From: a virus | Reading direction: 5' to 3' (one strand) | Length of the DNA: 64,000 nt | IMG/VR virus record: IMGVR_UViG_3300045988_087402 | Shown: positions 15,785 through 55,601 of the stretch, piece after piece | Position numbering within the stretch: the first letter of the stretch is position 1 | How the letters are laid out: every line of letters begins with the position of its first letter | Notes under the pieces: model-generated | The model's input: only the letters and a program-made list of their open reading frames with translations | Told to the model about the DNA's origin: nothing | Databases searched by the model: none | Made by a program: the position numbers and the translations under genes

Positions 15785-15820
15785 CGAATTTCGGAATACC
15801 TCTCGCCCTTGTGGCCATTA
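15785..15820 (+). repeat. GC-rich element copy A (cgaatttcggaatacctctcgcccttgtggccatta), forward
   Basis: One of six copies of a ~35-bp GC-rich repeat. Solo copy in an intergenic gap, ~65 nt upstream of the ATG at 15885. Confidence 0.85.
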
Positions 15821-25700: not shown

Positions 25701-25726
25701 AAATGAATATAAATTATGGGAAATAA
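22724..25726 (+). CDS. large structural or ejected (cargo) protein
   Basis: 1000-aa ORF. Preceded by aaatttcgattt, related to the shared upstream motif. Confidence 0.4.
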   Translation: MVKIRTGQYNFGQINTPKMADISQIYASVGQQLNKMYYDNRQAYINNIVNPLSQMHANKDDEALLNEKKNAITDGANAFKESDNWHQASDYIYNTVENIITDEGLALINSKYQQRQAYIQSLKDSGWSQQQQDIFLARSDYYSTAVKEENGKVVEGAFNAVNYGTPYDINEQLDKITNIISKAKASSESITNISAEDAVIKGLANVLNVDGETFVSNFLQTTKSTESVSYDDLYNYVSQRLYNNQEYIDYKTTIEQNALFKERFIPDSNNPRGGTLRDLTPELLKDVFNQSYAINALVGTGISLSDLGQLNDNGTFTLNPNMTEDTIKKLTGISAALGFDMVSYLTTGISYSDNVDIDSLYEFLDVAFNNYIDNEFNNYLKNNNISLDNPNIEAYKENWYLNLRTQNAIQSEIHANADSLADLMSFTRTKVVYDLISNNSVYTTAYKHKKELETKYTTEGFTTASTLPDTPVNVGSTKSIQARKTELGETLAQIVNDSRSIPITENMYKVLNTMYGIEPGDVSSINKLDLSEILNNPDINLSDKEREAFQRLHRNNQIEAQIKGEIDNYDRELSDVYNILKDDVSNLDYTSQFIINHNITNYEDYKEYMAEFPNSGQAPINYIYPGNEIPYIAKDITDRKSRILTEDEFNKLQQSLTEHAAEIYKKKTGEDLNYTTKGVVIFNPTGVSRQYLDNAIDAIGTSSDSWVLENVQGTKKFNKNIGLSLANNPELVRLLLTHAPTSGSGTIPNIKDVGIDAKETGLPDKTYDIRYNIVYDNNDFAETGQAKQKILCTALDVNGAPLGSFTISRDISKEALLNMIQSDYNNIRTSQIYDNNISGENVLSESRGKIVSQAASHMFSFTPVTGVKNTTTAGSTLNLQARAQQLEVGTGINGDGEKLYVQSNLIIPTTQQNIGNAYFEISKESLGRGEYGYKVVMVQPDGKGNWVDASMLDWGDERLNHNFYTLSRKGMPVKNINDAFAELSDYLLSIGYQMNINYGK

Positions 25727-28700
25727 AATAGGAACTCCTGTAAGTTTAAATCCGGTAACTGTTGAAGATAAACCTTCGACAGTTATCGGAACTCCTGTTA
25801 AAATAAGTAATCCAACGGGAGGTCAATCTTTTATGCAAGGATTTATGTCAACATCTCCTCGAAATTTTGATATATCTTCTTATCAAAAAATGATGAATAA
25901 TGTTGATACAAATCTTCCTTTAAATATTCTTAATGAAGAAAGAGCACGTTATCAAAGTACAGGTCATTTAATAGGTAATTCTCTTATTCAATTAGGAGGT
26001 ACTATAATAGGGGATATTATATCTGGAGTAGGAGCTTTATTTAATTTTAATAAAGTTGGTATAGAATTTATCAAAGATATTGTAGATACAAATTATCAAC
26101 CGGATTGGACTACTATAATGAATAAAGGTGTTAGTGGTGCTATTCAAGATTTTGGTAAGTCTATAAGTGAGGGAAGTAGAGAAATAGCTCCTATATATTT
26201 AACTGAACGTGCTCAACGCGGTGGTCTTGCTGGAGGTATGGGAGATAAAACTTGGTGGGCTGCTAATTTTCCTACTATAGGTAGTGCTGCCACATCTATG
26301 ATTCCTATTATGGGACAAATGAGAGCATTAAATTATATAGGTAAGTCATTATCAAAGGTTGGAAATGTTTCTAAAATAGGTAGAGGAATTAACACATTAG
26401 GTCGTACAATAACTAATAATAAAGTACAAGCTACAATAGGTACTCTTTATGGTGCACATTTGGATATTATGCAAGAAATAGTATATGACTATGATAATCA
26501 ATTTCAATATGCTAAAAATCTTGGATATTCAGATGAAGAAGCTCGTGAATTTGCAAGTATTTATGCTTCTACTGCTTATAAAGATGCTTGGGCTTATGGA
26601 ATACTTTTTAATGCTATAGAATTAAATAGTATATTAAAAGGTACAAATAGATTTTCAAAAACTATATCTGAAGTAGATAAAACTATTAATAAACATATTC
26701 CTGATATATCACGTCAAGGAACTAAGTTTACAGGTATTTCAGAAGAAGTTGTTGATTTATCCAAAAAGACTATATTTCGTGCAACTTTAGGAAAAAGTTA
26801 TGATTTCTTTAAAACTTCTATTTCAGAAGGTCTTGAAGAAATGCGTACAGATATAGCTTTAAAAGAAGGTGAATTAGAAGCTAAAAAATATCTTGATATT
26901 TATGACCCATTAAATGATATGACATTTGCGAAAAGACTTTATTCGCAAGTTAGTGATGCTCGAAATTGGGATAGTTTTTTATGGGGTATGGCAGGAGGTG
27001 CCGTAATGTATGCTGGAAAAGGTATATTAAATAAAATTCGTATGCCAGATTCATATAAAGATTATAATAAAAAATTATATGAAGGTATAATGAATAGTTT
27101 ACAAGATACTATAAATACTATAGCTACATTTGATGGAGATTTAAGTATAAGAACCAGTTTAGAAGAAGACCCTGCAATAACTATATTAGCTCCTTTATTT
27201 AATACTTTAGGAGCTGCCAACGCAATAGTTTATGGAGAAAGATTATTAGATGAACTTGGAACTATGACTTCTGAAGAATTAACTGCTGTTTACGGTTCTG
27301 ATAAAACAGAACTTATAAATACTCTTCGAGAAGAATTTAAAATAGCTAAAGATATATATGTTAGAAATGCTGATATAACTTATAATAGCAAAGCTGATGA
27401 TTATATTCAAAATGAAATGGCAGGTTTAGAGTATTTACATAATTATTATACTCGTAAATTTAATGAGATAGAAACAGAGATACAAAGAATTAAAACTCTA
27501 AACGATGATTTAGATATAAAACGAGATAATGAACTTAAAGAATTAGATGGTAGATTATATAAATTAAATTCTGATAAAGAATCTCTTTTAAATTCTATTA
27601 AATTTAATGAAGCCAATTCTAATGCGATAGATAAATTTGTTAATAGTAAAGAAACTTCTGAAAAATTAAACGATTTAAAACGCGAAAAAGAATCTTTAGA
27701 AAAAGAGATAAAATCTATTAAACAAACTATTAAATCTAATAATACTCGTAATGATAATATTCGACGTAATTTAGATAGATTGAATAGTTTATTATTAAAT
27801 TCTGAAACTGATACTGAAAAAGAACAATATAAAACTGAGTTAAAACATAATAAAAATAAACTTAGAGATAATAGTAAAAATATAGATAATTTATATATTA
27901 AAGAACAAGCTTTATCTGGAATTGAAACTTCTATTGCATATTTAAATGGTGAAATAGAATCTCAATTAAAAAGAAAAGAATTTAATACAAAAGCTATCGA
28001 AAGAGCTAAATCTACAATAGATATGATAGATGCTCAAATAGATAAATATAAAGAATCAAGAGGTGATATAATTAAACGTTATGAAGAAATAAGAAAAGAT
28101 TATGATTCAATTCCGAGAGTTAAAAATATTACTTTAGAGGATTTAACTAAGCTACGAGATAATATATTTAAACAACTTTCTAATTATGGAAATATACAAG
28201 ACCATAAAGAAGAATTTGCTAATAATCTTAAAACAGCTGTAGAATCTATAATTGATATTGAAACTAAAGAATTAGAACGTAAAGAATATAAGATTGAAGA
28301 AGATAAGAAAAATACAGAATCTGAAATTAAAGAAGAAGATGAATTTAATAATCGTCCTACATCTATAAAAACAGTTTTAAATGAAGGTGAATATATAACT
28401 TTAACTATAGATGATTTAAATAGGATTAGAAGTTTTATAATAAAAGGTAAGAAATATGATTTAAATAAAATTTATAATATACGAGGAAAAGATGTAGAAA
28501 TAATTAATATAAAAGATGATAATGGAATTATAAAAGTTACTACACCAGAGGGTGATATTCTGGCTGTAATATTTAATATGTTATCATCTCGTGATAATAG
28601 TGGATATTCAAAGACAATTTATAATGCGATAGATAGATTTACAAAAAGTAATTTTGAAAATGATTTTTATGATACATTAGTTGATTTAGATAAAGCATTA

Positions 28701-31700
28701 AATAATGATAAATTTAAAAAGGCTTTTACTTTTAAAGTTTCTAATATAGATATTATAAGTATAAGAGGTAGAGCTATAGAAGGAATTATTAATAATCTAA
28801 CTAAATATGCAAATGATAGAATTAATGAAGATAATCAGAAATTATATGATAGAGTTTATAATGAATTAAATTCCATATATGCTCAATCTGTATATGACGG
28901 AGAAATTCTTTTAATAAAAGATTATTTATATGATATATTTTATATAAATCTTCCTGCTAAATCTGCTGAAATAAATAATCAATTTAATAGTGAATATTTA
29001 GATAAATTTATAGATAATTTAGCTAAATACATAGAACGTTATATTTCTATTGATTTTACTAATGATAAATTTAAGTTTAAATATAATACAAATATTAATG
29101 AATTTATTAATACATTAGAGATATATTTTGATGAATTTGAAAGTCTATTAGCTAATAAGTTTTATACTCAATATACTCTTCAAGATTTTAGTGATTTAAA
29201 TAATGAATTAGCAAATAAGTTTAATTCTTTTAAAGAACAATTATTAAAAGATTATAATAAACAGCAAGAAGTTAGGAAAACTGAATTAGATAAAATTAGA
29301 GCTGAATTAGATACAGAAGAATCTGCAAATAAAGACTTTCTAAATGCTATAATAGATTTTATATCTTTTAGTAAATCTACTGATTCAAATATAGAAGATA
29401 GAGAAAATATATCTAAAAATGATTATAGATATTATGTAACTCCTGATAGATTAAATGCATATATCACCTTAGCAAATGTTATATCTAAATGGAAAGTATC
29501 TAATTCTTTTAATCCTAATAGAAAACTTTCATATACGGATATTTTATCTATTATATATAATACTCCGGAAGGTATTGAAAAAATAGATGATATTTATAAA
29601 TCTTTATGGAGAGCTTTAAAAGCTGCTTCTGATATTGATTCTATAGAATCTCTAAAAGATGAAATAAAAGAGAATGTTCCTAAAGAAAATTATAAAGAAT
29701 TTTTTAATATATTAGATACTATAGTAAATAATATAGTTCCTCCTATACGTTCTATCGAAAGTAAATATCTTGATAAATTTGATAATATTACTTCTGCTTA
29801 TATTAAAGATTTTAAGAAAACACATTTTCCAGAAAGAATCGAATATGGTACACATGAAGGTGTTCCTTTAAGTAATAATATAATATTCGATTCTCTTAAA
29901 TCTGCTATGGATTCTAAATCTAATAAAATAGAACATTTAATAAAAATCGAAGATAAAACTTATTCTCCTACCGAATTAATAAATATTTATAAAAATATTA
30001 CAAATGGTACACCTATAGCTGCTAAATATGATATTGAATCTAATATTGTAACTCTTACTGTTACTATTAACGGAAATACTGTACCTATTGGTAGTATTGG
30101 ATTATCCGACCACTTGAAAATCGGCAATTTAAAGGCATATAAAGAACTTAAAAATTCCGGTGGAACACTTATATACGACAGTTTTTTGGGTACGTCAGAT
30201 GGCTTAAAATCGACCTTAATAAGCCTATTACAAACGGTATCAAAAAGTCCCACTACATACGACTTAATACGTGAATATTTTAAAACTTATTTAAATGCTA
30301 AGACAAATAATACTACGACAGATAGCCTTACTATTGATATACTTAAAGATATTATAAGTAAATTAGATAAAATAGGTACACATAAAAATGCTGGAGGACA
30401 TTCTAATATAGTTAACGCTCTTATACAACTTTCTAATTATAATACGGAGAGAGAAGATACAGATGAAATAAATTATGAAGATTTATTTACTATCATTCAA
30501 CCTATGTTTTATGGTAGACTGAATATTATTGATTCTCTTAATAATAATTATTATGATTTAAAAAATAGTTATGAAATATTTAATAGTCGTGTTGGAGAAA
30601 GATTTAATCAATTAGAAACTCTTAGAAAAGCTATAATTAATAATCCTGATGCACCACTTATTATAACATATATAGGAAAACCTCGTATTAATTATAGTAA
30701 TGATAGACGTATAAAAAATAATATAAATGATTCTATTCAAAAAGATATAGAAGTTAATGGAAAACCTACTGTAGATATTATAGCAAGACAATTAACAAAT
30801 AATAGATATATTGTATCTTCATTAACCAGAAATGAAATAGTATCTGATGATGCTGCAAAGCGTACAATATATGACCCTAACAGAGGATTTGATTTTTATG
30901 TTAGAATAAAGTCGAATGGAACTGATACAGGTTTTAGTTATGTTCCTATTAAACTTACTACTGTAAATTCTGATACTGCATATTCAAGAGTTAGTAAAGA
31001 ATTTATTGAAGATGCTATTCGACAAATAATAACAGATAGGTTTCTAACTAATCTTTCTACAAGACAATCTAAAGATAATGTAATTGTTTCAGATTTAGTT
31101 AAGAAAGAATATAATAAAAAATATTTAAATCTTATTGATGATATAAGCGAAGCTATTATAGTTAATAATGGTGAAAAATCTAAGTTTCCTTGGTTTGATA
31201 CAAGTACACTTTATGATAATAAAAAAGAAGGTTTTGTAAGTAAAGATATTAAATTTATTATTAATAAGGACGATGAACATTCTTATGCTGTCTCTCTTAG
31301 AATTAATTATGAGCATGATATTGATGTAGATTCTCCGTCTATAATAAAGAATATAAAACTTACAGTTTATGATAGTAGAGAAAATCGTATAAAAGGTACT
31401 CCAAAAGATATATTTACTCAGACAGAATTATCTAAATACGGATTTGCTAAAAGAGATAGTAAAATAAATAAATCGGATGTTATTACATATAGTAAATCAG
31501 ATAAAAGTAAAACTATAACATTTGATGTTAATAATGATAATATAGAAAATTTTATTAAAAGTGGACTTATAGATATGTTAGTTGGTAATATGGTTCGTAA
31601 TGTAAAAACTGTATTAACAAATGGTTCATATACATATACTTCTAAAGCTACAGGAGCTTCATTTGGAAAATCATATAATGAAATAGATAAAAATAATATA

Positions 31701-33245
31701 ATAAAAGGAGATAATAATTCTAAAGTATTTAAGGGAACTTATACATCTCCTATTTTGGAGTGGGGTAAAGAAAAAGGTATATATAGTGGTAAAACTACTT
31801 TTGATTCTATACAAGATTTTTATCTTGATACAAAAGCATTAGTTACAAATATAATACCTATTAGAGATAATGTTACAAATGAAGTTGTAACTGATTATAA
31901 TCTTTTTAATGATTTACCGAGAATTTATGTAAAGATTGATAATCCTAATGCAGAAATTGAACAAACTAAACCTATAGAAACTATAAAAGAAGAAGAATTA
32001 AGTAAGAGTGTAAATATTATTGAAAATATTGCTTCTGCTAATGTATATTCTGAAGATAATTTTATTGATAAATTGAATAATGAATATGGTTTAACAAAAG
32101 ATACTTTTATAAATATAGGATTTATTAAAAGAAATACTACAGATGAAGTATTTAATATAATTAAAGATTTTATTGTAGAAACTGTAGATTCTGGTAAACC
32201 ATTTCCTTTAATTATAGTACATAATGTAGAAGATTATATTCGTATATTAAGAAGTCAAGGTTATATTGATGCATCTGATGATGAATTAACTAAAAATTAT
32301 AATATGATGGGAGCTTCTTATAGCGGTTATACATCAACTCCTTTTATATTAGTTAATCCAAAAATATTTAATACTACTAAACGAAATATTGGTAGTGGTA
32401 TATTTCATGAAATTATTCATCATAGAGTTGAAAAAGATACGGAAAATGATGTTATAACTGATGATGTAAAAGAGGCTTTAAATGATATAGTTAAAGATTT
32501 AGTAGAACGTAAAGAAGAAGTATTACGATATGATATAGAAGATTCTATTAAAAATAGTATATCAAAATCTTTAAAAGTAGCTTGTTATAATTCGGATGGA
32601 ACTATAAATGAAGATGTTGCATATCACGAACTCTTAGCTTATACATTATCTAATCCAAATTTAGCTGGTTATTTAAATAATATATATTATAAAGAAGAAA
32701 CTAATAGACCGAGTGAATCTATTTGGAAAAGAATTATTGATAATCTTCTTAAATTATTTGGTATAAAAGTTAATAATAATAGTGTACTTCAACAAATACA
32801 AAATGCTTTTGATGAAGGTTTTATGTTTATTGTTAATAGTGTAGAAGTTGAAAATAATGAAAATGCTACAAGCAAACAAACTTCGGAACGCCCTCCCGCC
32901 CTTGTGGCCAATAAACAAGCGTCAATAGATGACATTGATGTTACAACTCTATCGGATGAAGAATTTATGAATAATGGCGATGAATTGTTTTTACGAATAG
33001 ATTTCGCAATTTCTGATGAAACTACGAATGAAATTTCTGATGAAACTACGAATGAAGCTATAGAGCCAAAAGATGACACTTCTATATTGGCCACAAGGGC
33101 GGGAGGGCGTTCCGCTGTTCTTCCGACTAATTCTATAAATTCTTCTGACAATCGAAATAAATTATTATCTTTAAATATTGATACTAATATTATTGATTCT
33201 TTTAAGGATTCTTTTACTGATAGTTCTAATTTAAAAATATGTTAA
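25716..33245 (+). CDS. giant virion cargo/ejection protein with HExxH metallopeptidase-like motif
   Basis: 2509 aa. Long K/E-rich coiled-coil region. HEIIHH at nt 32406-32423. The C-terminus carries an in-frame inverted-repeat element (32884-33114). Confidence 0.5.
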   Translation: MGNKIGTPVSLNPVTVEDKPSTVIGTPVKISNPTGGQSFMQGFMSTSPRNFDISSYQKMMNNVDTNLPLNILNEERARYQSTGHLIGNSLIQLGGTIIGDIISGVGALFNFNKVGIEFIKDIVDTNYQPDWTTIMNKGVSGAIQDFGKSISEGSREIAPIYLTERAQRGGLAGGMGDKTWWAANFPTIGSAATSMIPIMGQMRALNYIGKSLSKVGNVSKIGRGINTLGRTITNNKVQATIGTLYGAHLDIMQEIVYDYDNQFQYAKNLGYSDEEAREFASIYASTAYKDAWAYGILFNAIELNSILKGTNRFSKTISEVDKTINKHIPDISRQGTKFTGISEEVVDLSKKTIFRATLGKSYDFFKTSISEGLEEMRTDIALKEGELEAKKYLDIYDPLNDMTFAKRLYSQVSDARNWDSFLWGMAGGAVMYAGKGILNKIRMPDSYKDYNKKLYEGIMNSLQDTINTIATFDGDLSIRTSLEEDPAITILAPLFNTLGAANAIVYGERLLDELGTMTSEELTAVYGSDKTELINTLREEFKIAKDIYVRNADITYNSKADDYIQNEMAGLEYLHNYYTRKFNEIETEIQRIKTLNDDLDIKRDNELKELDGRLYKLNSDKESLLNSIKFNEANSNAIDKFVNSKETSEKLNDLKREKESLEKEIKSIKQTIKSNNTRNDNIRRNLDRLNSLLLNSETDTEKEQYKTELKHNKNKLRDNSKNIDNLYIKEQALSGIETSIAYLNGEIESQLKRKEFNTKAIERAKSTIDMIDAQIDKYKESRGDIIKRYEEIRKDYDSIPRVKNITLEDLTKLRDNIFKQLSNYGNIQDHKEEFANNLKTAVESIIDIETKELERKEYKIEEDKKNTESEIKEEDEFNNRPTSIKTVLNEGEYITLTIDDLNRIRSFIIKGKKYDLNKIYNIRGKDVEIINIKDDNGIIKVTTPEGDILAVIFNMLSSRDNSGYSKTIYNAIDRFTKSNFENDFYDTLVDLDKALNNDKFKKAFTFKVSNIDIISIRGRAIEGIINNLTKYANDRINEDNQKLYDRVYNELNSIYAQSVYDGEILLIKDYLYDIFYINLPAKSAEINNQFNSEYLDKFIDNLAKYIERYISIDFTNDKFKFKYNTNINEFINTLEIYFDEFESLLANKFYTQYTLQDFSDLNNELANKFNSFKEQLLKDYNKQQEVRKTELDKIRAELDTEESANKDFLNAIIDFISFSKSTDSNIEDRENISKNDYRYYVTPDRLNAYITLANVISKWKVSNSFNPNRKLSYTDILSIIYNTPEGIEKIDDIYKSLWRALKAASDIDSIESLKDEIKENVPKENYKEFFNILDTIVNNIVPPIRSIESKYLDKFDNITSAYIKDFKKTHFPERIEYGTHEGVPLSNNIIFDSLKSAMDSKSNKIEHLIKIEDKTYSPTELINIYKNITNGTPIAAKYDIESNIVTLTVTINGNTVPIGSIGLSDHLKIGNLKAYKELKNSGGTLIYDSFLGTSDGLKSTLISLLQTVSKSPTTYDLIREYFKTYLNAKTNNTTTDSLTIDILKDIISKLDKIGTHKNAGGHSNIVNALIQLSNYNTEREDTDEINYEDLFTIIQPMFYGRLNIIDSLNNNYYDLKNSYEIFNSRVGERFNQLETLRKAIINNPDAPLIITYIGKPRINYSNDRRIKNNINDSIQKDIEVNGKPTVDIIARQLTNNRYIVSSLTRNEIVSDDAAKRTIYDPNRGFDFYVRIKSNGTDTGFSYVPIKLTTVNSDTAYSRVSKEFIEDAIRQIITDRFLTNLSTRQSKDNVIVSDLVKKEYNKKYLNLIDDISEAIIVNNGEKSKFPWFDTSTLYDNKKEGFVSKDIKFIINKDDEHSYAVSLRINYEHDIDVDSPSIIKNIKLTVYDSRENRIKGTPKDIFTQTELSKYGFAKRDSKINKSDVITYSKSDKSKTITFDVNNDNIENFIKSGLIDMLVGNMVRNVKTVLTNGSYTYTSKATGASFGKSYNEIDKNNIIKGDNNSKVFKGTYTSPILEWGKEKGIYSGKTTFDSIQDFYLDTKALVTNIIPIRDNVTNEVVTDYNLFNDLPRIYVKIDNPNAEIEQTKPIETIKEEELSKSVNIIENIASANVYSEDNFIDKLNNEYGLTKDTFINIGFIKRNTTDEVFNIIKDFIVETVDSGKPFPLIIVHNVEDYIRILRSQGYIDASDDELTKNYNMMGASYSGYTSTPFILVNPKIFNTTKRNIGSGIFHEIIHHRVEKDTENDVITDDVKEALNDIVKDLVERKEEVLRYDIEDSIKNSISKSLKVACYNSDGTINEDVAYHELLAYTLSNPNLAGYLNNIYYKEETNRPSESIWKRIIDNLLKLFGIKVNNNSVLQQIQNAFDEGFMFIVNSVEVENNENATSKQTSERPPALVANKQASIDDIDVTTLSDEEFMNNGDELFLRIDFAISDETTNEISDETTNEAIEPKDDTSILATRAGGRSAVLPTNSINSSDNRNKLLSLNIDTNIIDSFKDSFTDSSNLKIC
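32884..32912 (+). repeat. GC-rich element copy E (cggaacgccctcccgcccttgtggccaat), left arm of an intragenic inverted pair
   Basis: 29-nt perfect inverted repeat with 33086-33114. Variant of the element family (cgccctcccgccc instead of cacctctcgccc). Confidence 0.85.
33009..33056 (+). repeat. 24-bp tandem duplication (atttctgatgaaactacgaatgaa x2) inside the intragenic inverted pair
   Basis: Read directly. Encodes ISDETTNE x2 in the giant ORF. Confidence 0.9.
33086..33114 (+). repeat. GC-rich element copy F, right arm (reverse orientation)
   Basis: attggccacaagggcgggagggcgttccg is the exact reverse complement of copy E. Confidence 0.85.
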
Positions 33246-33248: not shown

Positions 33249-36200
33249 ATGAATTATTGTAATATTATTCCGACTATTGGAGAAAGTAATACACCTTCTC
33301 ACGTATTTACTTCTGTATTAAATCTCGGTAATATTATTTCTACAGAAGATATACTTTCTATGGATATTAAAGCTAAATCTATTAGAGATTTAGCTACTTT
33401 AATATTTAAATATTCTCAATCTGCAAATATAATAAATAAAGGTTTTCCTACTTATGAAGATACAGGCGAAGTAAAACTTGAATATACACTTAAATATATA
33501 ATTGATAATCCTAATATATCTAATAGTAGTGCTAAAAGGATATATCAAAAAATGCTTGATTATTTAAAAGTAGATATTGAAACTTTATATAATCCTACTA
33601 TAAAATATAATGGAACTTTTTCGAGAACTGATTTAAATTATAGTAATGCAGTTCTTGTACAAATATATAATGAACTTATTGAAGAAATTCCTAATCTTCG
33701 TACTAAAAGTCAAATTACATTAAAGAAACTAATTCTTAATAGACTTTTAGAGAAAATGGCTCCTTATCGAGCTAATGATAATACTTGGGAACAATTTGTT
33801 AATGATTATTTTGAAGATGTTCTTAAAGTAGATTCTATAATTTGGAATGAGTTTATTACTTATTTATCTACTGAATATGGAATTAAATATTATAATGTTC
33901 AAAAAGATTTAACTCTTTCTGATATAGAAGGTACTTTTACTACCGATGGAGTTGAGGAAATATGGGATGCTTCAAGTCAAGATAAAATAAATAGAAAAAA
34001 TACTATAGCAGCTATTGTTAAAAATAAACTTGCTAAAATATTAAATGATGTTAATCACGGAGATTCTACTGTTAATAAACTTTATATTCCACTTCCTATG
34101 GATATAAATAGTTTATGGAATAGGTTAATAAATCTTCATATTTATGATAAAACTCGCGGAGATATTGTTGCGAGTTTAGAAAGAGTAATTCTTCAATTTA
34201 ATGATACTGAGAAGTTTACTGATAAAAGTAATATAATTGGTTTTCAAAAAATTTTAGATGAATTTCATAAAGCAGATGAGGGAATTGTCGATTCTCAAAA
34301 CTTTGTAAATGCTTATATAAGTGGTGTTGCTCTTGCTGTTATACCTGTTAATGCTATTGCATTAGACGTCGATTTTGTCGCCTCCATAATGACGCAAAAT
34401 AGGGCTTCTTTTGCATTCAATGTTTACTATGATAGATTTATATCGGTCATTCAAAATAATTTAAAATTCGGGTTGTATGACCCCTTTAATGAGGCGTCAG
34501 AGCGTGCCACCGTTATAACCGACAATGGGATATTAAATATAGATAAAACATTAGATAGTATAACAAATGCTATAAATGTTATTGGATTAGATATTAGTCA
34601 TAGAGCTTTATTATCTTATATAAATTCTCAATCCGATAAACAAGGTGCTCTTCAAGAAGTTTCTAATACTTTAAATTATATTTTAAAAGAGATAGATACT
34701 CTTAAAGGAAATAGGGATATAAATTACGAATCATCTACAGATAATAGAGGTGCTTTATATAGATTAGCTAATATTGCATCTTTAGATTTTGATTCTATTG
34801 GTAAATTGAGTTATTTAGATGTTCGAGGAGAACTTAATTATAGTCCTCAATATGAAAATTTATTAACTTCTCTATTCAGAGGTATAGCTGTAAGAGGTAA
34901 AGTTCGTGAAGATTATCTTAATTATAGATTTAAAGATTATCTTAATGACCCTACTTTAAAATTTGATAATCTACTTTGGTATGATGATGCTACTGGAATA
35001 GGCATATTTGAACATACGAAACGTGTCGACGGAGAAGGTTATAAATTAAATGATTCTTTTGTAGATAGATTAGCTAAAGGTGAAGAATTTATTATTAGTA
35101 AATTTGATGGTATAAGAATTTCTGAAGATTATAGTAGTAGAGGATATAAATATAAAAGTATTCAATCTACTACTTATAAATTTACAGAAATTCTTGCTAA
35201 TCTTATGGGACAATATATCTTTTTAACTTCGGATAGTCCTCGTAGTTATATGATTAGTGTAAGACATATAGATATTGATGATTTATATGTCAATGAAGTT
35301 ATTAATATTAAATCTAAAATATTTACAGCTTTAAGTAAGATTGTAGATAATAATTTACGAATATTTGAACTTTATGGTTCTCGTGTATTTAATATTGATT
35401 TGAATACTGATGAAGGTAAAGATTTAGCTACTTCTATTCATAATGTTAAATATTGGAATGGTAAAACTATTTTTGATAAAGATGGTATTCCTACAGGTAG
35501 AGCTTTTAAATTTTTAGATTTAACATATAATGATGGAAATGGTTCTGTAAATATTATAAAATATATAGCAAATGAAAATGGTGTTTCTGAATCAGATGTA
35601 TATAAAGAACTTGTTAAATCTGTAGTCAATGGTGTTATTTCTAAATATGATGTATCTTCATATATACCAGCTTTTGTAACTAAATATATACAATATGCTG
35701 AAAATAGTGCTGAATCTGATTTTGGAGATATAGCTGAATTAGTTAGTCGAGTATCTATTAAATTAGGAGATACAAGATTATCTTTAATAGAAGATTCAAG
35801 AAATGATGCTATAGATGAATTATATAATGATTATATAGAAGATTATAAAAATCGTCATAAACAAGAACCTTCTTTTAAACAAAAAGAAGTTTTATATGAA
35901 CGTTCAAAACGAGAAGTTTATGATACTAATACAGAAATTGGAAAAGAAGTTTATAAAAAAGCTATTTTAAAAATTATATTAAATAATGCTGTATATGGTA
36001 CTTCTTTTGATGGTCTTGTTTATGGCAAACTTAGTGAATATAAATCTACAATAGATTATAATAAACGTGGTACACAAATAGTTAAAACGGGTCTTAATTC
36101 TATAGATACAGGTAAACCTATAAAAATACTTGTTGTAGAAGATATGGAATTTGCATCAAATATTATTGATAAAATGTTTGTCGATAGTACAGATGTTACT

Positions 36201-39200
36201 GAATTAGCTATTAAAAAATCTTATGAAAAACCAGCTACTATAAATGATTCAATGTCTATCATAACAGATGTTAGATTTGAAGATTTATTGAAATCTACAG
36301 GAAGATGGGATGAATATAAGAAAATAGTAGCTGATTTAAGAGATGAAACTGAAAAATTTAATCCTTTTTTATATGATAAACTTATAGAACAATTAAAATT
36401 ATTTGGTGTAGCTCGTAGAAGAAGAGGTGATTTTCTTATTAAAGATACAGCTGTTTATGATGATTCTGGAAATATATTATCGGATATATTTGCAGATGAA
36501 GTAGATACTGTTCAGATAAAAGACTCTACAATAGTATTATTTAAATCTACAACTCGTGGTACGGCAATGGGTGATGTATATGATTATATGATAGATAATG
36601 ATATACAACAAATATCTCCTAAATCTGCTGTTAAAGTATCCGGTATAACACCTATTAAAATACATGATGACAAAGGTAGATTTGTAGCTCCTATTGTAGA
36701 TTCCAGAAGTCTTCTTAATATGAAGTCTTCTGATTTTGTTATACAGCAAGATGTAAAACCTGATATAATAGATGCTGAAGTTACTGTTCCTTCTCGATTA
36801 TTTAAAAATATATTAGGAACTCTTTCAGCAAGTCATTATACTGTAGACGGTAAATCTTATACTCCTTATGAATTTGCAAAAGAATTTAATACTATTGTTT
36901 CATCTACTATTCAAGAAGATGCTATAAGTGTTGCATACGAATTGGGAGCTATAGATGAAACCGGTAATATTCGTACAGATAATGTAGGTAATATACAACT
37001 TGATACAAGAAAACTTACAAAATATTTTCAAGATGTTGTTCAAGATGATAATTCAAGTATTAATATTAAAAAAGCTCTTGAATTAGATTCTGTTGGACAA
37101 CCTAAAATGCCTTTATCTTTTCCTGTTACATATAGGAAATTTGAAAGAATATTGGCTTCTAAATTTACTAAAGATGTAATATATAGAAAACTTCCCGGAT
37201 TTCATGCTCCTTTAAGAGCTGATATATTTACTGCATCTAATAGTTTAATTTCTCGTGAACAATACCTCGATAAAGATAGTTATGATAAAGCTATTGAAGA
37301 TTTATATGAAAGGGGTATTATAACTTATTCAAGAGATTTTATAGATAGATGTAAAGCTGAAGGTAGAAGTCTTGAATTAAGAGCTGAATACGGTTATGAT
37401 GAAAATGGTGAATTAATATATAAAGCAGAAGTTATAGCAAATCCTTGGTTAAAAGAGTTCTTTGATACCATACCTATTATAAGAAGAGTTGATATGGGCG
37501 ATGGTGTATATAAAGAATTTTTAAGTGTTGATATAGATGCTATACCTATTGAAGCAAGAACTATGTTTGGAGGTAGGATACCTTCTGAAGGTTTAATGTC
37601 TCTTGTAGTTTTTGAAATAGTAGGATTTTTAAATACTGGTGCAACTCAAGCTATATTTCCTCAAAGTCTTATTACACGAACAGGTTGGGACTTTGATATA
37701 GATACTATTTATGCTTATGCTAAACATATTAATTTTAATGGAGAATCATATACTATTCCAAAATATGATAGTAAAATGATTTCTGAAATTAATGAAAATC
37801 TATCTAAATATTATGCTTTAAAAGATATATTAAAAGAAAGTCTTGAAATTATAAAAGTGACTAAGAGTGATACAGATACTTCACTTAATAGTCCAGCTTT
37901 TAAGATATTAACTAAATATTTTATTAAACTTTATTCTTCTGATAGTAATACAGATGTTTCTTTAGATTCTATTATTCCGACTTTAGATAGTATTCTTGCT
38001 ACTATATCTAATAAAGAAAGTATAGAATATAAGAATATTTTACGTATAAAAACTTATGTTCAAGAATCTATACCTTCTATTGTATCAAGAGTTAAAGTTA
38101 ATTTTACAAATCTTATTAATACAGCTCGTGAATATACAGAAGCTATAGAATATTTAAAATATATTAAACAAAGAGATTTAACACAAGAAGAACGAATTGA
38201 TTTAAATCCGGGAATAGATAATAATTATGTTCAAAATAAACGACGTATGTTTAATGAACTTTTATTATCTATTGAAAGAGATATTAAAACTACTAATAAA
38301 ATATTTAATAAAATTAAAACTTTAATTAATAGTATAGATATAACTTCTAAAGATAGTGATAATATTATATCTATAAATGATTATTATACTGTTAAAGATT
38401 TTTTTGAACCTTTTATTAAAGGTAGTATTAAAAATGATAGTGGTAAAGTTATAAATATATTTTCTATATTTGATAATATAGAAGAAAAGATTAACAGACA
38501 ATATACAGGTCTTAAAGAATCTAAAGGATATGATTTTGAAGATATAAGTGAATCTGTTACTATAAGTCGTCAGGCTCGTGATAATAGAATTATAGATATG
38601 GTAATATCTGTATTATCTAATAAAAATCATAGAATTGATATTGATAAACCTAATAGTTTTGATAATATATCTGCTGTTTCAGCAAGAGATAATGCTTTAT
38701 GGGGTAAATCTAATAATGGATTAAATCCCCACAATTTAGCTGATAAAATATCTTTAAATATTAGTAGTATGTCATCTACTATATTAAAGGGATATTCTAT
38801 TAATACAGATGGTAATATAGCTATATTAGGTAATCTTCATGCTAAACTTAATAATCCTGTTAGAAGAATAATTTCTATAGATTCTTTACCTAATAATGTT
38901 ACAAAAGAAGTATTAGATTCTGTATTAGGAAGTGATAATTGGAGTTACACAGAAGATGGAAGATATGTTATAGTAGAGGATGTATGGGTTGGTAATAATG
39001 CTTCTAATACTTTTACTGATTTATCTGGTGAAAGAATTAATATGCAACTTACTGAAGTAACAGCTGCTATTCTTGATGTATTAAAGTCTGAATTAATGTT
39101 CAATTTAAATCTCGATACCATTGGTGTATTTAGACTTTTATCACAAGGTTGTGTTACTGAATTATATAATGGTAAACCTAATAGATTTAGTTATGCTTCT

Positions 39201-42200
39201 GCTTTTATAATGCAACCTGTAATTGTAGAATTAGTAAATTTTAAAAGTGGAGCTATAATTACAAATCCTAATTTTAGTATATTAGATGCTTGTAATACTC
39301 TTATAATAAAATATACGGATATTCTTAATTCTAAATATGAACAAAAAATTCCATATTATTATTATAAATATAAATTACATACTACTGAAGAATTAGTTAG
39401 ATTTATTAAGAATAGAAATAATGAATCTTTAAGTTATTATTTAGGTCAATTAGATGTTTTATATCTGTTTAGAGAATATGAGACTATATCTAATGATATA
39501 ATTGATTTATCATTTGTATTAAAAACCGATGTTCCAGTTAATGATTTTAATACAGCTGATGAACGTGAATCTAAACTCGCGGATTCTTATATAAATAGAG
39601 ATAAATATTTTAGTATATTAAGAGATGCGTATACAAAATCATTAAGTTATATAGATTCTATATCTGAAACAGAAGAATATTGGGATAATTATAAAGTTTT
39701 ATTTACAGATTTTAAATCTCTCTCTACAGGAGATTTTAAAATAAAATATCCTAATATTAGTTATAAAGATATAGAATTTATTACATTACCTAATTATTAT
39801 GAAGCTCTAAATGATTTTCCAAATCTTATCACATGGCAAGATAGAAAAAATAAGTTAGAACTTCTTAATATATCTTATAAACCAGTTGGTAATGTAACAG
39901 TAAATGGACAAGATATTATAAGTGTTGTATTTACAGGTTTAAATGAAAATTATAAATTTAATGGTATAATAAAGCCTAATTATAAAGATAGTCTTTATGG
40001 TATAATTCAAGTTAGAGAACAGTATGGACATTGGTTGTTTGCTAATTCTTTTAATAAAGTTTTCGCACAACGTTCTTTGGCTATGAGAAAAGCTGTTCGT
40101 ACTTTCTTACAGCAAAATGGAAAATCTTATAATAGAAAAGCTAATAATTATGTTACAGGAAAAGTATTAGAATATTATATACAATCTTACGGAGATGAAA
40201 CTGTACCTATAATGTCTAATATTCCTGCAAAACAAATTAAAACAATATTAGGTATAATATCTGATGAAGAGAGAGCTAAACATAATAAATATATAAGTGA
40301 GTTACAAAATAATTTAGGAGATGTTATAACTAACGACAAATTTTCTAAATGGGTTAGTTTAACATTAGAAGAACAAATTAATTTAATACTTAATGATAAA
40401 TCTCTTAAATCTTATATTAATAAAGCTGATTTTAGATTTTCTAATATATTTAATCATTTACAAATAGTAAGAGATAGTATAAGACGATATGGTTATTCTG
40501 TAATAAGAATTATAACAGACGATTCAAATAAACTTTCTATAGATGATGTTTCATCTGGTATATTAACTATGTATCAAAGTGATATACCTTATATAGCACA
40601 TACTATTAGAAATTTAATTGCTTATACTTATATAACAGAAGGTTTTACTTATGGTGCTAATATATCTAAATTTATACCTATAGAAATACTTACTTCTGAT
40701 TTAGTAAATGAAAGTTATCAAAAACGTATAACACAAATCGGTGTAATAGACCCTACTATAGGTATATCTGATTATGGACAAGCTCTTCGTACAGCTGAAA
40801 CAAAACTACTTAATGGTGAAACTTTTAATATAGAAGAATCACTTGATTATATAAGTAGACAAAATCCATCTATAAATGCTACTATACCAAGTTATAGAGA
40901 ACAACATAGAATTAATAATAGTACAATATATCAAGCAACATTTGGTCTTTTAGTTAATTCTGAAGGATATAATGTTGGTAAAATGCGAGTTACAGATGCT
41001 AATGGTATAGAACGTAATATAATATTTGAAACAAAAGAACGTGTTATAGCTTCTACTCGTTCTAATGCAAAATATCTTACAGAACGTTTAGATGGTAATG
41101 TAACTATTTATAAAAGAAGTGATTCATTTTTATATAATACAACAGATAATTCTAAAGAAGTTTATTATTATTATCCTGTTAGTAGACTTCTTCCTAATGA
41201 ATTTTCTGAATATAGTATCATAGATAAATATAATGTATCTGATAGAATACTTATTCAGGATGAAAACGGAACAATATCTACAATAGATGTTGATACATTT
41301 GTTAAAAGATATAGTACGTTAAAAGATTTCTTAATTACTTTAAATAAATTAGAATCTGAATATAAAAATAAAAGTAATAAAGATGCTCCAGCTAATTTTG
41401 AAAATAATTCTGATGAAGGAGTTATAATAAATGTTCCCTATGATTATGTAGAAGAAGTTTCTTATGAACCTGAAGAAATATCCGAAGATGTACCTATTGA
41501 ATCTAAAAGAAAATCACCTTTATATTCTTTAGGAATAACTTTTGAAGATACTGTTACTGAAAAAAGTAATAAATCTCTTATAGAAACTGTTAAAGATGAA
41601 GTTTCTAAAAATGATAATCTTATTTATATAGGACATGAATCAAATATTGTTAGTAGAATATATGATACGAATGGTAAATTTATTCATGTTGATTTTACTA
41701 AAAATCCTTATGATGAAGCCAATAGAATTTCTAAGTTGTTAAAAGAAGGTGATTATCTTATAGTAGGTGATAGATTTGAAGATGCTGGAATTACTACAGA
41801 AACAGGTTCTATATGGACAAAACTATTTATAGATAAACTTTATCAAAATAATGGTAATATAAATTCTATAAATACTATATTAAATGATGGTTTTGGATTT
41901 GCTGTATCTCAATCTTATGTAGATGTAAATAGACGCAATGTAACTTATTCAGAACCTAAGCAATTATTTAGTAAAACAATTAATATAAAAAAGCCTTCTA
42001 ATATAGGTATTGAAACTCGTACTAAAAAGAATAGTATAATAGCTCTTGATTATTATCAAAGTCTTGATAAATTAAAAAAGTTTTTAGAAAGAAATAATAT
42101 ACCTAATACAGCTGCTATATTAGATGCTTATAGTAATATAAATAAAGAAGATTACGATGGTTCATTAGAAAATGACATAAATGATGCTAATCAAAATGCT

Positions 42201-45200
42201 GTATTTTATGCTTTTGAAAGAATGATTCCTATAATGGAAAATCTTATGGATTCTATAAGACTTCTTTTAATGGAAGTTGAAAGTGTAAATACAGATACAA
42301 TTAGAAATGATTATGCAAAATGGCAAGATTATAAAGTAAAAGTAAATAGTCTTAGAATTTTAATTGATTATCTTAATAAGTTTAAAGATATTCAACCTAT
42401 AACTATAAACGATACTATTTATAACTCTGAATCTGAAGAGGATGTTGCATCATTTCATGAAGAATTTGATACAGCTAATAAAGCTATTGAACGATTATCT
42501 GAATTATATAATAAATCTATTAGTTTACAAAGTAGAGTATTAGATAAAGTTCAAGAAATTATAGTAGATTTAGTTATAACTCAAAGTCGTAATCCGAATT
42601 ATGCTACAGCTTTTTCTAAAGTATTAGAAGCTGCTCGAAAAAATGATTTTGATTCTTCTACTTTTGATATAGAAAATCTTAAAATAACAAGTGAAGAATA
42701 TAATGATATAGTAGCTAAAGTATTTGCTCTTAAAAATTCGGATATTACTTTTTGGCAAAGTAAATTAGATTCTCCTTTTGTAACAGGTGTAACACTTACT
42801 GACATAATAGGTAAACAATATACTACAATTAAGTACGAAAATAATAAAAGAATTAATAAATTATTAGATAAAGTAGAAGATGCTATAAAAGAATTAGAAA
42901 AAGCTGAAAACTTAAATCTTTCTACTTATGAAGCAAGAAATAAATATTTTCGTAAATTTGTTAATGATTATGGTACTTTTATAAATGATTATAATAAAGA
43001 TGCTGTAGATGAACAAGTTCAAGGATTAAAAGATTCTATACAAGATTTATATAATAGAAAATATTATGGTGCTACATATATTGATGAAAGACTTGTAGAT
43101 GATATTATAAAAGAAACTGATGATTATATTTTAGATTTTAATACAAATTCTGATGGAATATTAATCCCTCTAACAGATGAAGAAGTAGATTCTTTATTAA
43201 AAGAAATAGAAGGTAAGTCAGATGTTGTTATAAATAATTATCTAAAATATAATGGATACTATGAAATAAAAAGGATAACAAAAATAGGAGAAACTCCTGA
43301 AAAAGTATTTTATAAATTATCTTATAAAGATAGTGCGAAAAATGTTAAATATAGTGAATTGACAGAAGCTGAATTAAAGTTTTTAAATACTATTAAAACT
43401 ATTATTGGAAATGTTATTTTAGAATATAATCCGTCTTGGTTTATTTCTCCGGATGCTATAATAGATATATTTCCTTATTTAGCAAAACCGGATTCAAAAA
43501 ATTCACTTAAAAGATTTATAGGTGTTCCCGGAATTAAAAAAGATTCTACTTATGAAGGACTTGATAGAAAAAATAAATATATACTTAAAGCAAGTACCTT
43601 AAGTATACCTAATTTCAATCCTGTTTTTAATATTCCTAAAAGAAGAGTAGGAGAAGTTTATGATGATTATGCTGAAAGAGTAGCAAGAGAATTTAATGAA
43701 TGGTATAGAAAAAATCCGGATGCAATAGAGCCAAAAACTCAATTAAAATCTATTGCAGATATTAGAGATTATAATAGTTATGTTAGAAAGTTAAATCATA
43801 CAGAAGCTATTGATAAAAGAACTTATGATATAAAAGCTGTAATGGAATCTTTTATAAAAGAGCTTTATAATATCAAAATTGTTAATGATTTTATTATAGA
43901 TTGGGAACTCGGTAAATTTGCATTAGATAGTGCAGCTGGTGAAGCTAAAATAGATAATTTGTCAGCTATATTTGAATCTATGCGAAAACGAGTTTATAAT
44001 ACAAGCAAAGTTAATAATACAGTAGATGTTATAGCTAAAGGTATAATGCGATATTCATCTATTAATTATATGTGGTTTAACTGGAGTGCTGGATTAAAGA
44101 ACTTAGCAAAAGGTATATCAGATATGATAATTGATACTTCATCTATTAATTATCTTACAAGTAAACAACTTATGCAAGGTCTTTTAGATATAATTAAAAT
44201 AACTCCTGAATGGATAGCTGAAATAAATAAAGAAAAAACTAAGAATCCAATTATAGCTTTAATTAAAGATTTTGAAGTTATATTTCAAGATACACGAGAT
44301 ATAAATGTTAGTATGACAGGAGAGAACTGGTTAACTAAAGTTTTAACTGCTGCTGATACAGCCGGTTATAGTCCTAACCAAATAGGTGAGTTTTTTATGC
44401 AATTTGGTATGCTATTAGGTATGTCTCGTTCTCACAGAGTTATAGCTGGTCAGATAATGTCATTTCAAGACTTTTATAATGATTCTAAAATAGAAGAATT
44501 ATCTAAAGTATTAACTGATGAACAAAAAGAAGAATTTGCTAAATTTGTAAAAGCTAAAAATGATTATATAATAAAATATGAAAATGAAAATAAAAAGAAA
44601 TATCTTTGGCAAAGTGATTATGCAGGTGAATTTATAAGGGCTAATATAGATAAATTTACAAAAGAACAACGAATTGAATTAAATAAATTAATTAAAGATA
44701 ATAGAAAAGTTCTAAAAGAAAGATTTGAAAGATTTCCAACATTGGATTCTCAATTAACTGTTGTAGATGGTAGATTAGCTTATAAAGAAGGAAGTCAATT
44801 AACAGATAAATCTGTAAATGATTTTAAAAATAGAGTTAAAGGCGTAAATCAAGCTCTACATGGTATTTACAATATAATTGATAAAAATGCTTTACAAGAA
44901 AGTGCATTTGGAGATTTATTCATGCAATTTAGAAAATGGATTCGTCCTAACTTTATAAGATATTGTGGACGTCGTTTTAATAAAACTATATTTAATGAAA
45001 TGTTAGGTACATGGGAAGTACCTGTATATAAACCGAGTTTTGATTGGGCTACTTATGGTTATAAAATGTTTAAACAAGATAGTGATATTGTTAAGCTAAA
45101 TATATTTAAAGACCCACGTGCATTCTTTAAAGGTTTATTTGAGATGTTTAATTATCAATATAAACTTCTTAGACATGCTAAATTATATTATAATTCTCTT

Positions 45201-45653: not shown

Positions 45654-45716
45654 AATTCTACTAATGATATAAATAATATTATACTTATAGATGCACCAAG
45701 TGCAAAAAAGGGGAAT

Positions 45717-45746: not shown

Positions 45747-45798
45747 ATTATTATAAAAGCCATTTTACGGCCGACTTTAATAATGATTTTAAGCTATT

Positions 45799-46242: not shown

Positions 46243-46277
46243 AAATTTCGGAACACCTCTCGCCCTTGTGGCCATTA
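46243..46277 (+). repeat. GC-rich element copy B (aaatttcggaacacctctcgcccttgtggccatta), forward
   Basis: Left arm of a convergent inverted pair with copy C. Confidence 0.85.
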
Positions 46278-46334
46278 TACTGTGTATAATACTATGTAAC
46301 ACTATAAGTTTAATAGTTACATCCGAATTAAATA

Positions 46335-46390
46335 CAGTATTAAATACAATATTAAATTCAGTATTAAATACAATATTAAATTCAGTTGTT
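46335..46390 (+). repeat. 24-bp tandem repeat cagtattaaatacaatattaaatt x2 (+ partial) between copies B and C
   Basis: Read directly. Confidence 0.9.
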
Positions 46391-46429: not shown

Positions 46430-46466
46430 TAATGGCCACAAGGGCGAGAGGGTGTTCCGAAATTCG
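46430..46466 (+). repeat. GC-rich element copy C (reverse orientation: taatggccacaagggcgagagggtgttccgaaattcg)
   Basis: Reverse complement matches copy B except for one extra c. Confidence 0.85.
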
Positions 46467-55497: not shown

Positions 55498-55533
55498 TAA
55501 TGGCCACAAGGGCGAGAGGTGTTCCGAAATTCG
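55498..55533 (+). repeat. GC-rich element copy D (reverse on plus strand; forward relative to the minus-strand primase gene)
   Basis: taatggccacaagggcgagaggtgttccgaaattcg. Abuts the primase start codon. Same orientation relative to the downstream gene as copy A. Confidence 0.85.
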
Positions 55534-55576: not shown

Positions 55577-55601
55577 CTCCACTAATAATGATTTTTATAG
55601 A

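Follow-up and report, generated by a model that had tools for sequence, protein, structure and literature searches.

An opposed pair of K-boxes, a dispersed and probably regulatory motif, lies in coding sequence ahead of the giant polymerase gene of crAss-like phage cr127_1

The inverted repeat at 32884-33114 is best explained as an opposed pair of K-boxes, putative cis-acting signals that recur genome-wide, appear to be ancient and selected, lie here within coding DNA and probably represent a transcription or regulatory site. This reading, which is drawn from sequence comparison, is given a probability of roughly 55%. The stretch of DNA that was analysed (64,000 nucleotides, hereafter the window) belongs to the uncultured phage cr127_1 (Crassvirales, Crevaviridae, Kahucivirus), which has a genome of 83 kb. 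Among the viruses of the human gut, crAss-like phages rank first in abundance.

The two arms (32884-32912 and 33086-33114) are complementary at 29/29 nucleotides and enclose an interior of 173 nt, giving a unit of 231 nt, or 77 codons, exactly as the sequence-only reading had described it. An imperfect extension of the repeat reaches 46 nt at 89% (32879-32924 and 33074-33119), and the number of such matches expected by chance in the window was 0.00 (100 shuffles). The 24-bp tandem duplication reported earlier inside the unit was located as a perfect x2 repeat at about 33008-33055, which encodes ISDETTNE twice and is present in 1, 2 or 3 copies among close relatives. As predicted from the nucleotide sequence, the unit is read in frame by an intact ORF of 2509 aa (..SERPPALVAN..ISDETTNEISDETTNE..ILATRAGGRS..), which agrees with the earlier claim that the giant ORF runs straight through it. 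The features at this locus are as follows.

25716..33245, plus strand: ORF of 2509 aa that holds the coding pair; part of the giant-protein gene block and without a match in Pfam or PHROG.
32882..32912, plus strand: K-box c, left arm of the coding pair, TTCGGAACGCCCTCCCGCCCTTGTGGCCAAT; peptide SERPPALVAN, with rare GC-ending codons (GC3 0.60).
32913..33085, plus strand: interior of the coding pair, an acidic, poorly constrained linker peptide.
33086..33116, minus strand: K-box d, right arm of the coding pair (inverted copy); peptide (I)LATRAGGRS(A).
32789..33151, minus strand: antisense ORF of 120 aa, regarded as a side effect of composition and symmetry and not as a gene.
33249..45653, plus strand: downstream ORF of 4134 aa, with a DFDID motif at residue 1481.

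The giant-protein gene block corresponds to the "transcription block" of Yutin et al., and DFDID is the catalytic-type motif of crAss-like phage RNA polymerases (PMC7886860; bioRxiv 10.1101/2020.03.07.982082). Orthologues of the 4134-aa protein match PF25176/DUF7831; in Pfam and PHROGs, no match was obtained for the two giant proteins themselves or for the box-adjacent ORFs, with the exception of one primase. K-box d ends about 130 nt upstream of the start codon of this next gene. The antisense ORF noticed earlier does exist, with a TTG start, and its frame is lost in 7/11 lineages. An open antisense frame was also found in 7% of random windows of the same size (231 nt), and dual coding of the unit was rejected, the antisense frame being unconserved and unremarkable against this background.

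Both arms are copies of an asymmetric motif of about 45 nt, named the K-box (core TTCGGAACACCTCTCGCCCTTGTGGCCATT), which is not itself palindromic. A total of eight K-boxes were identified in the cr127_1 genome, comprising two convergent pairs and four singles, all with sharp conservation boundaries; six of the eight are intergenic, and two are located outside the window. In line with the earlier reading, the arms do belong to a repeated family, although the second pair and the singles had been missed. All four single boxes are sense to the local genes and stand ahead of a gene block, and each pair begins with a sense box. Tandem arrays with a 12-nt period occur within about 100 nt downstream of 5/6 sense-oriented boxes. 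The other boxes in the window, including the intergenic pair (copy 2, the coding pair being copy 1), are listed below.

15790..15819, plus strand: K-box b, single, sense, in a 136-nt gap before ORF 15885..16748 and followed by 12-nt tandem arrays at 15820-15890.
46247..46276, plus strand: K-box e, arm of the intergenic pair, antisense to the local minus-strand genes.
46327..46386, no strand assigned: 12-nt-period array x5 between K-boxes e and f, variable in copy number among relatives.
46431..46461, minus strand: K-box f, the sense member of the intergenic pair, placed between the dUTPase gene with its hairpin (upstream) and a 110-aa ORF (downstream).
55499..55528, minus strand: K-box g, single, sense, between the minus-strand ORF 55602..56426 and the primase-like ORF 54447..55493.

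The composition of the arms sets them apart from the gene that contains them. Their GC content is about 0.42-0.45 (100-nt windows) against a background of about 0.23, and their GC3 is 0.55-0.60 against 0.082 for the whole 2509-aa ORF, the arms using its rarest codons. In the distant lineage, the right arm has a third-position identity of about 0.9 and a GC3 of 0.8-0.9, compared with a background near 0.1. In some lineages the left arm reads SGRATSSPTG, and in others, shifted by one base, it reads VGDQPTSLPA. Since the surrounding protein is less conserved than the arms, whose reading frame moreover differs with the lineage, the comparison indicates that conservation here acts on nucleotides rather than on the peptide, that is, on the DNA or RNA itself.

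Comparison with orthologues of the 2509-aa protein dates the pair. The orthologue with 48% identity, on contig ERZ26781227 NODE_79, has its GC-rich inverted pair at the corresponding site and can be aligned through both arms and half of the interior, the first half being conserved at the protein level, and only the 29-aa stretch with the tandem repeat is lineage-specific; the clean 77-codon indel envisaged by the sequence-only reading was not found. In the nine orthologues with about 30% identity, GC-rich patches are present at the same place, and the distance from the end of the right patch to the stop is 112-127 nt. In 8/9 of them these patches form an inverted GC-rich pair at the equivalent position, while L034 keeps the right arm only, and the inverted repeat is significant in L031, L032, L035 and L036 (0/300 shuffles match the observed score). 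K-box d is the positional orthologue of this right arm, which is universally conserved in the distant orthologues. As judged from these alignments, the coding pair has been at its site since before the relatives diverged to about 30% protein identity.

The version of the box in the distant lineage, motif M, reads AGTGGGCG....ACCC....CCCTACCGG. K and M agree at only about 11/30 nt, with no clear sequence similarity, and were equated by position and through the intermediate orthologue. Motif M is likewise dispersed, being syntenic in every locus at about 3.7 kb (-), 6.9 kb (+), 17.5 kb (+), 17.8 kb (-) and 26.8 kb (+), and at least ten sites are present in one 92-kb contig; as an assembly circle closed by a 99-nt overlap, this contig gives box positions that are uninformative on genome ends. 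Sites 1-4 are syntenic across nine deeply diverged genomes, and motif identity reaches 70-90% across genomes in which the flanking proteins are about 30% identical and the flanking DNA cannot be aligned. Single M-boxes ahead of genes are sense in about five cases and antisense in three, and downstream of many M-boxes there are mini-hairpins whose GC stems covary and whose triloops are G-N-A. All copies of a genome share one version of the box, K in Kahucivirus and M in the distant lineage; copies from a single genome have an identity of 0.76, and those from different genomes one of 0.70 when they occupy the same site and 0.68 when they do not. Searches of INPHARED phage records with DNA and protein queries (element, flanks, distant orthologue and M motif) returned cr127_1 itself as the sole match, and Rfam gave no family match.

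Several structural descriptions of the motif were considered and rejected. A G-quadruplex or i-motif was dropped, the three C3 tracts being missing in the single boxes and in copy 2. A tRNA-like reading of motif M was dropped as well, its loop being no T-loop and the 5' acceptor strand being absent, and an internal 6-bp hairpin of motif M shows no maintenance by compensation, the variants ACCTCCT and AGCGGG being uncompensated.

The coding pair and the dispersed K and M boxes thus present a near-identical asymmetric motif ahead of genes, in lineage-specific versions. We propose that the boxes would be recognition sites of a phage-encoded, sequence-specific factor that co-evolves with them, and that most probably they mark transcription-unit starts or boundaries, as a promoter, an operator or a related regulatory site. 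The coding pair would serve the polymerase gene, and it would sit in the 3' end of the 2509-aa gene because there is no intergenic space before the giant RNA polymerase gene. Pairing of the arms, as an RNA hairpin or a DNA cruciform, would follow from the presence of two opposed sites; it may add function, and is not visibly maintained by selection. The boxes of the distant lineage occur in either orientation and therefore fit poorly with a simple one-way promoter, and the similarity of boxes within a genome could alternatively be caused by gene conversion among repeats instead of co-evolution with a trans-acting factor. A scan for sigma-70 promoters was uninformative (92 sites against 102 expected).

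Phage-wide box sets are represented by T7-type promoters, the stoperators of cluster A mycobacteriophages and the start-associated sequences of cluster K. The K-boxes share with such sets an asymmetric motif of 20-45 nt in near-identical copies, usually in the short gaps that precede genes and at times within the gene upstream, and the existence of lineage-specific versions. They differ in occurring in both orientations and twice as convergent pairs, one of which lies deep in a coding region and has been kept there across divergence to about 30% identity. No description of such a motif in crAss-like phages was found in the literature, the coverage of which was incomplete.

Among the alternatives, a functional long-range RNA hairpin in a polycistronic mRNA is considered unlikely. 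The GC-rich stem of about 30 bp would act as an RNase III-type processing site or as a stability or pause element, uncoupling or tuning the expression of the 2509-aa gene and the polymerase gene, and copy 2 would act likewise for the 110-aa ORF. Folding of the coding pair does predict a long stable hairpin (-97 kcal/mol, z = -9.8), as the sequence-only reading had anticipated, and copy 2 yields z = -12.9; pairing of the left with the right arm was predicted in 11/12 folded elements (10/11 orthologue lineages and copy 2), with z of -3 to -8, and both arms are kept in coding sequence despite costly codons. However, partner arms have an identity of 0.71, compared with 0.77 for other copies of the same genome, no pair-specific compensation was seen, and close relatives carry uncompensated changes. 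L034 has lost the left arm and retained the right, the majority of boxes are single, and no U-tract follows the stem of the coding pair, whose tail is ctgttcttccgac; the K-box pair at 46.2-46.5 kb was not picked up by a terminator scan. If the message were cut 130 nt before the stop, a non-stop message would moreover result for a protein with a conserved C-terminal tail. On the earlier proposal of an mRNA hairpin before the giant gene the evidence is divided: the long predicted fold and the pairing potential across lineages speak for it, the lack of compensation, the single loss of the left arm and the missing U-tract against a function as such. Partner arms being no more alike than other copies of the same genome, these comparisons indicate that the hairpin is not separately selected.

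It also appears improbable that the boxes are selfish, functionless short repeats of a REP/REPIN-like or MITE-like kind, which spread in an ancestor, sometimes as inverted doublets, and were kept alike by gene conversion, the coding copy being tolerated in a disordered linker. REP/REPIN elements, which are mobilised by RAYT, are short dispersed repeats, mostly extragenic, that are single or form hairpin-capable inverted doublets, with copies alike within a genome and differing between lineages. The K-boxes recall them in being dispersed, in both orientations, GC-rich in an AT-rich genome and twice arranged as inverted doublets, in being more similar within than between genomes, and in that arm variants of close relatives resemble other copies of the same genome. 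A weak likeness between the interiors of copy 1 (+) and copy 2 (-) may point the same way (score 39 against 25.9 +/- 4.7 in shuffles, with 7/500 shuffles reaching it). Palindromic repeats are also reportedly tolerated in frame in Rickettsia, as Ogata et al. are said to have described in 2000; such palindromic elements and in-gene MITE-like repeats share with the coding pair a palindromic unit, a length that is a multiple of three, an intact ORF and a variation-tolerant region, although no orthologue was found here without the coding-pair unit. Unlike REP/REPIN elements, the K-boxes are low in copy number (8), deeply syntenic and not palindromic, one of their doublets lies in frame in an ORF, and no RAYT-like gene is annotated in cr127_1.

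Further observations weigh against mobility. The synteny persists where flanking proteins are about 30% identical and the motif is still 70-90% identical, and no polymorphism of presence and absence was seen among the recovered relatives: protein- and flank-based searches found no element-free allele among Kahucivirus-like contigs, all of which carry the unit, while motif-pattern scans, which could return carriers only, added no inverted or rearranged copy. The flanks have no direct repeat that would represent a target-site duplication, either at copy 1 (..caaact/TCGG...CCG/ctgttc..) or at copy 2 (..aaataaa/TTTCGG...CCGAAA/ttcgta..), and no transposase, RAYT, integrase or recombinase is listed in the annotation of the deposited record (83-kb genome; annotation only). 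The idea of a MITE-like insertion later domesticated as coding sequence is consequently not supported, there being no empty site, target-site duplication or annotated transposase. K and M motifs were absent from 185,579 bacterial and archaeal genomes, which also counts against selfish repeats; a host-derived repeat or CRISPR-repeat mimic was rejected, no exact match being present in bacterial genomes.

A slim chance is left to structured-DNA entry sites, a reading built on analogy. Under negative supercoiling, opposed boxes would pair within strands, and the AT-rich interior and the 12-nt arrays would become single-stranded, providing a promoter or origin to an enzyme dependent on single-stranded DNA, such as the crAss-like RNA polymerase, as in N4. 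In vitro, the templates used by the crAss-like virion polymerase gp66 are single-stranded or denatured DNA, double-stranded DNA being hardly transcribed, and no promoter motif was found for this polymerase, the one crAss-like enzyme studied (bioRxiv 10.1101/2020.03.07.982082). The precedent is N4, whose virion RNA polymerase has as promoters extruded GC-rich hairpins in which a sheared G:A pair closes a loop of 3 nt (PMC4496689). Common to both systems are GC-rich, structure-prone elements in a phage with a giant virion polymerase, and the boxes of the relatives also share mini-hairpins with G-N-A triloops; in addition, both K-box pairs enclose AT-rich interiors with tandem arrays. The N4 hairpins, however, have stems of 5-7 bp and 3-nt loops and occur only at the first-injected genome end, whereas the K-box pairs would enclose 150-260 nt with stems of about 30 bp, and the boxes occur genome-wide. 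Loops of this length make cruciform extrusion kinetically hard, the K-boxes of the window have no mini-hairpins, and the boxes stand ahead of structural, replication and polymerase genes alike, with no obvious early set. It is doubtful that the K and M boxes are recognition elements of the crAss-like RNA polymerase or a partner factor, with opposed pairs as extruded or single-stranded entry points; if true, such a structure within the gene upstream would control the polymerase gene.

Finally, an intragenic inverton, an invertible segment by which the linker peptide would alternate between two forms, would be compatible with the perfect flanking inverted repeats, with an inverted interior that stays in frame by arithmetic and with the open antisense frame, yet it is largely refuted and very improbable, because 0 of about 20 independent copies of copy 1 or 2 are inverted (phage record, IMG/VR and metagenome contigs; assemblies), interiors are collinear across orthologues, the antisense frame is not kept open in 7/11 lineages and a recombinase is unannotated.

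The opposed K-box pair, if read as a regulatory signal, bears on crAss-like phages as a family, for which few transcription signals have been described; a GC-rich motif that is family-wide and covaries with lineage offers a concrete and cheaply testable candidate. The candidate signal would mark the boundaries of gene blocks, and it has been retained even in coding sequence ahead of the polymerase gene. The element provides a clean case in which selection on the DNA or RNA sequence appears to override codon choice and reading frame inside a gene, and it cautions that an inverted repeat found within a gene is not necessarily a mobile element.

The window was 99.9% identical to the uncultured phage cr127_1 (MT774393; Crassvirales, Crevaviridae, Doltivirinae, Kahucivirus intestinalis) from human faeces. 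The perfect 29-nt inverted repeat described in the sequence-only reading was confirmed (32884-32912 and 33086-33114 are fully complementary), as were the perfect 24-nt x2 tandem duplication (33008-33055) inside the 173-nt interior, the in-frame passage of the 231-nt unit through a 2509-aa ORF and the antisense ORF 32789..33151. The repeat of this pair, copy 1, reaches 46 nt when few mismatches are allowed; its arms are GC-rich islands in a genome of 26% GC, and its RNA fold has a predicted energy of -97 kcal/mol (z = -9.8). The 4134-aa protein encoded next downstream carries DFDID at residue 1481, the type of catalytic motif reported for the giant crAss-like phage RNA polymerase (PMC7886860; bioRxiv 10.1101/2020.03.07.982082). 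The arm sequence matched 0.00 times by chance in the window (100 shuffles) and recurs elsewhere, with eight copies in the cr127_1 genome. Alignment of these copies defined a motif of about 45 conserved nt with abrupt edges, termed the K-box. The features are as follows.

25716..33245, + strand: 2509-aa ORF containing copy 1 (boxes c and d)
33249..45653, + strand: 4134-aa ORF, next downstream, starting three bases after the 2509-aa ORF
46247-46276 and 46431-46461: second pair with near-identical arms (copy 2, boxes e and f), in an intergenic gap, enclosing a 12-nt-period tandem array
15790-15819, + strand: single K-box (b)
55499-55528, - strand: single K-box (g)
82337-82365 of MT774393, - strand: single K-box outside the window
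1753-1782 of MT774393, + strand: single K-box h, outside the window

Six of the eight K-boxes are intergenic. All four single boxes point in the same direction as their neighbouring genes, preceding the structural block, the block from 15885, the primase gene and a 2-kb poorly coding stretch, and in both pairs the sense box comes first and the inverted one second. Tandem arrays of 12-nt period, among the strongest in the genome, occur within ~100 nt after five of six sense boxes, and the 24-nt coding repeat of copy 1 occupies the corresponding position. Boxes f and g each come after a hairpin. These hairpins are AT-rich and long-looped, on the - strand, at 46483-46530 (ATAGGGATAA..TTATCCCTAT) and 55545-55585 (ATAGTGGCG..CGCCACTAT), the order at both being upstream gene stop, hairpin, box and next gene.

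Other repeats were also recorded. The top-scoring array of the window, a perfect 12-nt-period array (CAGTTGTAAAGA x4.8) at 63944-64000, has no K-box close by and continues past the window end. Both ends of MT774393 (1-40 and 83360-83412) lie inside one 12-nt tandem array, so the cut that made this record linear fell within a repeat. Right after box h, the ~2 kb of MT774393 1782-3800 hold several 12-, 24- and 36-nt-period arrays and no annotated ORFs beyond very small ones (30-37 aa); this stretch may be non-coding or resemble an origin. Past the portal gene, at 2327-2385, a GC-rich hairpin (gccgct-ctccc-agcggc) is followed by an 11-nt repeat (AATGGCCTTTA x2.7). A 14-bp stem flanked by T-runs on either side (45714-45749), where + and - gene blocks converge, probably terminates transcription in both directions.

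Copy 1 and/or copy 2 was found in every Kahucivirus-like contig recovered from IMG/VR and metagenomes, where motif-pattern scans could return carriers only and protein- and flank-based searches were also run. In most close relatives the copy-1 repeat is imperfect (2-3 mismatches), and its tandem repeat has 1, 2 or 3 units. Genomes otherwise identical across 481 nt differ solely in the (CCCN)-like core of the arms. This core, CCCNCCCNCCC (32894-32902 and 33097-33105), holds the only substitutions, sometimes two at once (e.g. TCCCG to GCCCT), which suggests slippage or conversion in a microsatellite-like stretch.

A protein search identified one orthologue with 48% identity to the 2509-aa protein (P0012) and eleven with ~30%; the relatives are metagenome assemblies, and the distant genomes were read in part. 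The clean 77-codon indel anticipated for a domesticated insertion did not appear, since P0012 aligns (SAPQAL..PIEFDDIDITTIDDSFIINNDDGLF..LLADREGHGQS) along both arms and the interior's first half and lacks only the 29 residues carrying the tandem repeat. At the DNA level, P0012 shows a GC-rich patch at each arm position and a predicted long-range stem (z = -3.1). Within the last 300 residues, conservation across all orthologues is highest in the C-terminal tail ..N..N.VS....FxDKYxDxxNxKIC (33140-33242). Another matched protein, P0004 (ENA contig, 3398 nt), has an MreB/actin-like N-terminus followed by the phage protein's final 190 residues and is most likely a chimeric assembly.

Two GC-rich patches were present in 8 of the 9 ~30%-identity lineages fetched, the right patch always ending 112-127 nt upstream of the stop; locus L034 has lost the left arm. 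They form an inverted repeat, M, whose sequence is other than K (left AGTGGGCG....ACCC....CCCTACCGG, right its complement), significant in four lineages (0/300 shuffles) and weaker in the rest. M sites are syntenic in each 28-kb locus, between genes 1 and 2 (-), between genes 2 and 3 (+) and as the coding pair (+/-), and some lineages also have one within the polymerase gene (+); one 92-kb circular contig, covered over 52 kb, has at least ten. Their flanks are unalignable across lineages, whereas M itself is 70-90% identical. Copies are more alike within a genome (0.76) than at the same site across genomes (0.70), and thus each lineage has its own version of the motif. K would correspond to M, an equation drawn from place in the protein alignment and the intermediate P0012 locus rather than from strong sequence similarity.

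Along the circular 92-kb contig IMGVR_UViG_3300045988_042075 (loci L040-L044), (-)(+) M-box pairs bracket segments of 3-8 kb (42561/45721, 70241/76361, 80555/88292 and 92033/2812), with the small (+)(-) coding pair in addition; boxes a and h of cr127_1 form a similar bracket of 2.8 kb. In the distant lineage, a variable GC-rich extension comes after many M-boxes (L031:3640-3720, L031:6848-6925, L031:17520-17600 and equivalents in L032, L034-L036 and L040-L044), whose mini-hairpins have covarying stems (GGCC/GGCC, GCTGGGC/GCCCAGC, GGGGC/GCCCC, GCC/GGC), G-N-A or GCAA loops and GAGCG-like words on the flanks.

The proposal of a recent MITE-like (or RPE-type) insertion was rejected: empty sites were absent among the recovered Kahucivirus-like contigs (IMG/VR, metagenome assemblies), neither a target-site duplication nor, in the deposited annotation, a transposase was found, and the pair is syntenic in distant orthologues. 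An inverton was likewise rejected, as orientation to the flanks is constant with no inverted copy in all recovered Kahucivirus-like contigs, and the open antisense frame is missing from 7 of 11 lineages and occurs in 7% of random 231-nt windows. No known RNA family matched, and the stem, lacking a trailing U-tract, is no intrinsic terminator. Neither the K nor the M motif had an exact match in 185,579 bacterial and archaeal genomes, a further argument against a recent MITE-like insertion.

Codon usage points to selection on the arms at the nucleotide level. Their GC3 is 0.55-0.60 versus 0.082 for the 2509-aa ORF in the window, and they consist of codons used 1-5% of the time (e.g. CGC, CCC, GCC, GTG, GGG, GCG, TCC, TCG). 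In the distant-lineage right arm, third-position identity is ~0.9 against ~0.4-0.5 in the surroundings, and GC3 is 0.8-0.9 against ~0.1. The left arm is read as SGRATSSPTG (L031-type) or, shifted by one base, as VGDQPTSLPA (L033-type); because the same DNA is read in two frames, its conservation cannot be explained by the peptide.

The evidence on the suggested mRNA hairpin, which may affect expression of the downstream gene, is mixed. Left-right pairing was predicted in 11 of 12 folded elements, namely copy 2 and all but one of the 11 orthologue lineages, but partner arms are 0.71 alike versus 0.77 for any two same-genome copies, and uncompensated arm changes occur, also in copy 2, in a less closely related strain. 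Motif conservation thus accounts for the complementarity, and the sequences give no sign of selection for pairing itself. That 10 of 11 orthologue lineages have kept the two arms nevertheless suggests a need for each of them.

The K/M boxes are most likely cis-acting signals for a phage-encoded, sequence-specific factor changing alongside them, as promoter sets co-vary with phage polymerases. A simple promoter, however, explains neither why distant-lineage boxes face both ways nor why the pairs are kept. The pairs may instead be operator or looping sites, or a processing stem. A structured-DNA entry site is attractive, although only by analogy: the crAss-like polymerase works best on single-stranded templates, and no promoter is known for it (bioRxiv 10.1101/2020.03.07.982082), phage N4 uses extruded GC-rich hairpins (PMC4496689), and many M-boxes bear mini-hairpins with covarying stems and G-N-A triloops. 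As cis-acting signals, the boxes would mark transcription-unit starts or boundaries, which fits their placement past the end of one gene and before the next block. Since there is no gap upstream of the polymerase gene, its signal would have to sit inside the preceding gene, where it may be tolerated in an acidic, poorly constrained linker before the conserved C-terminal tail.
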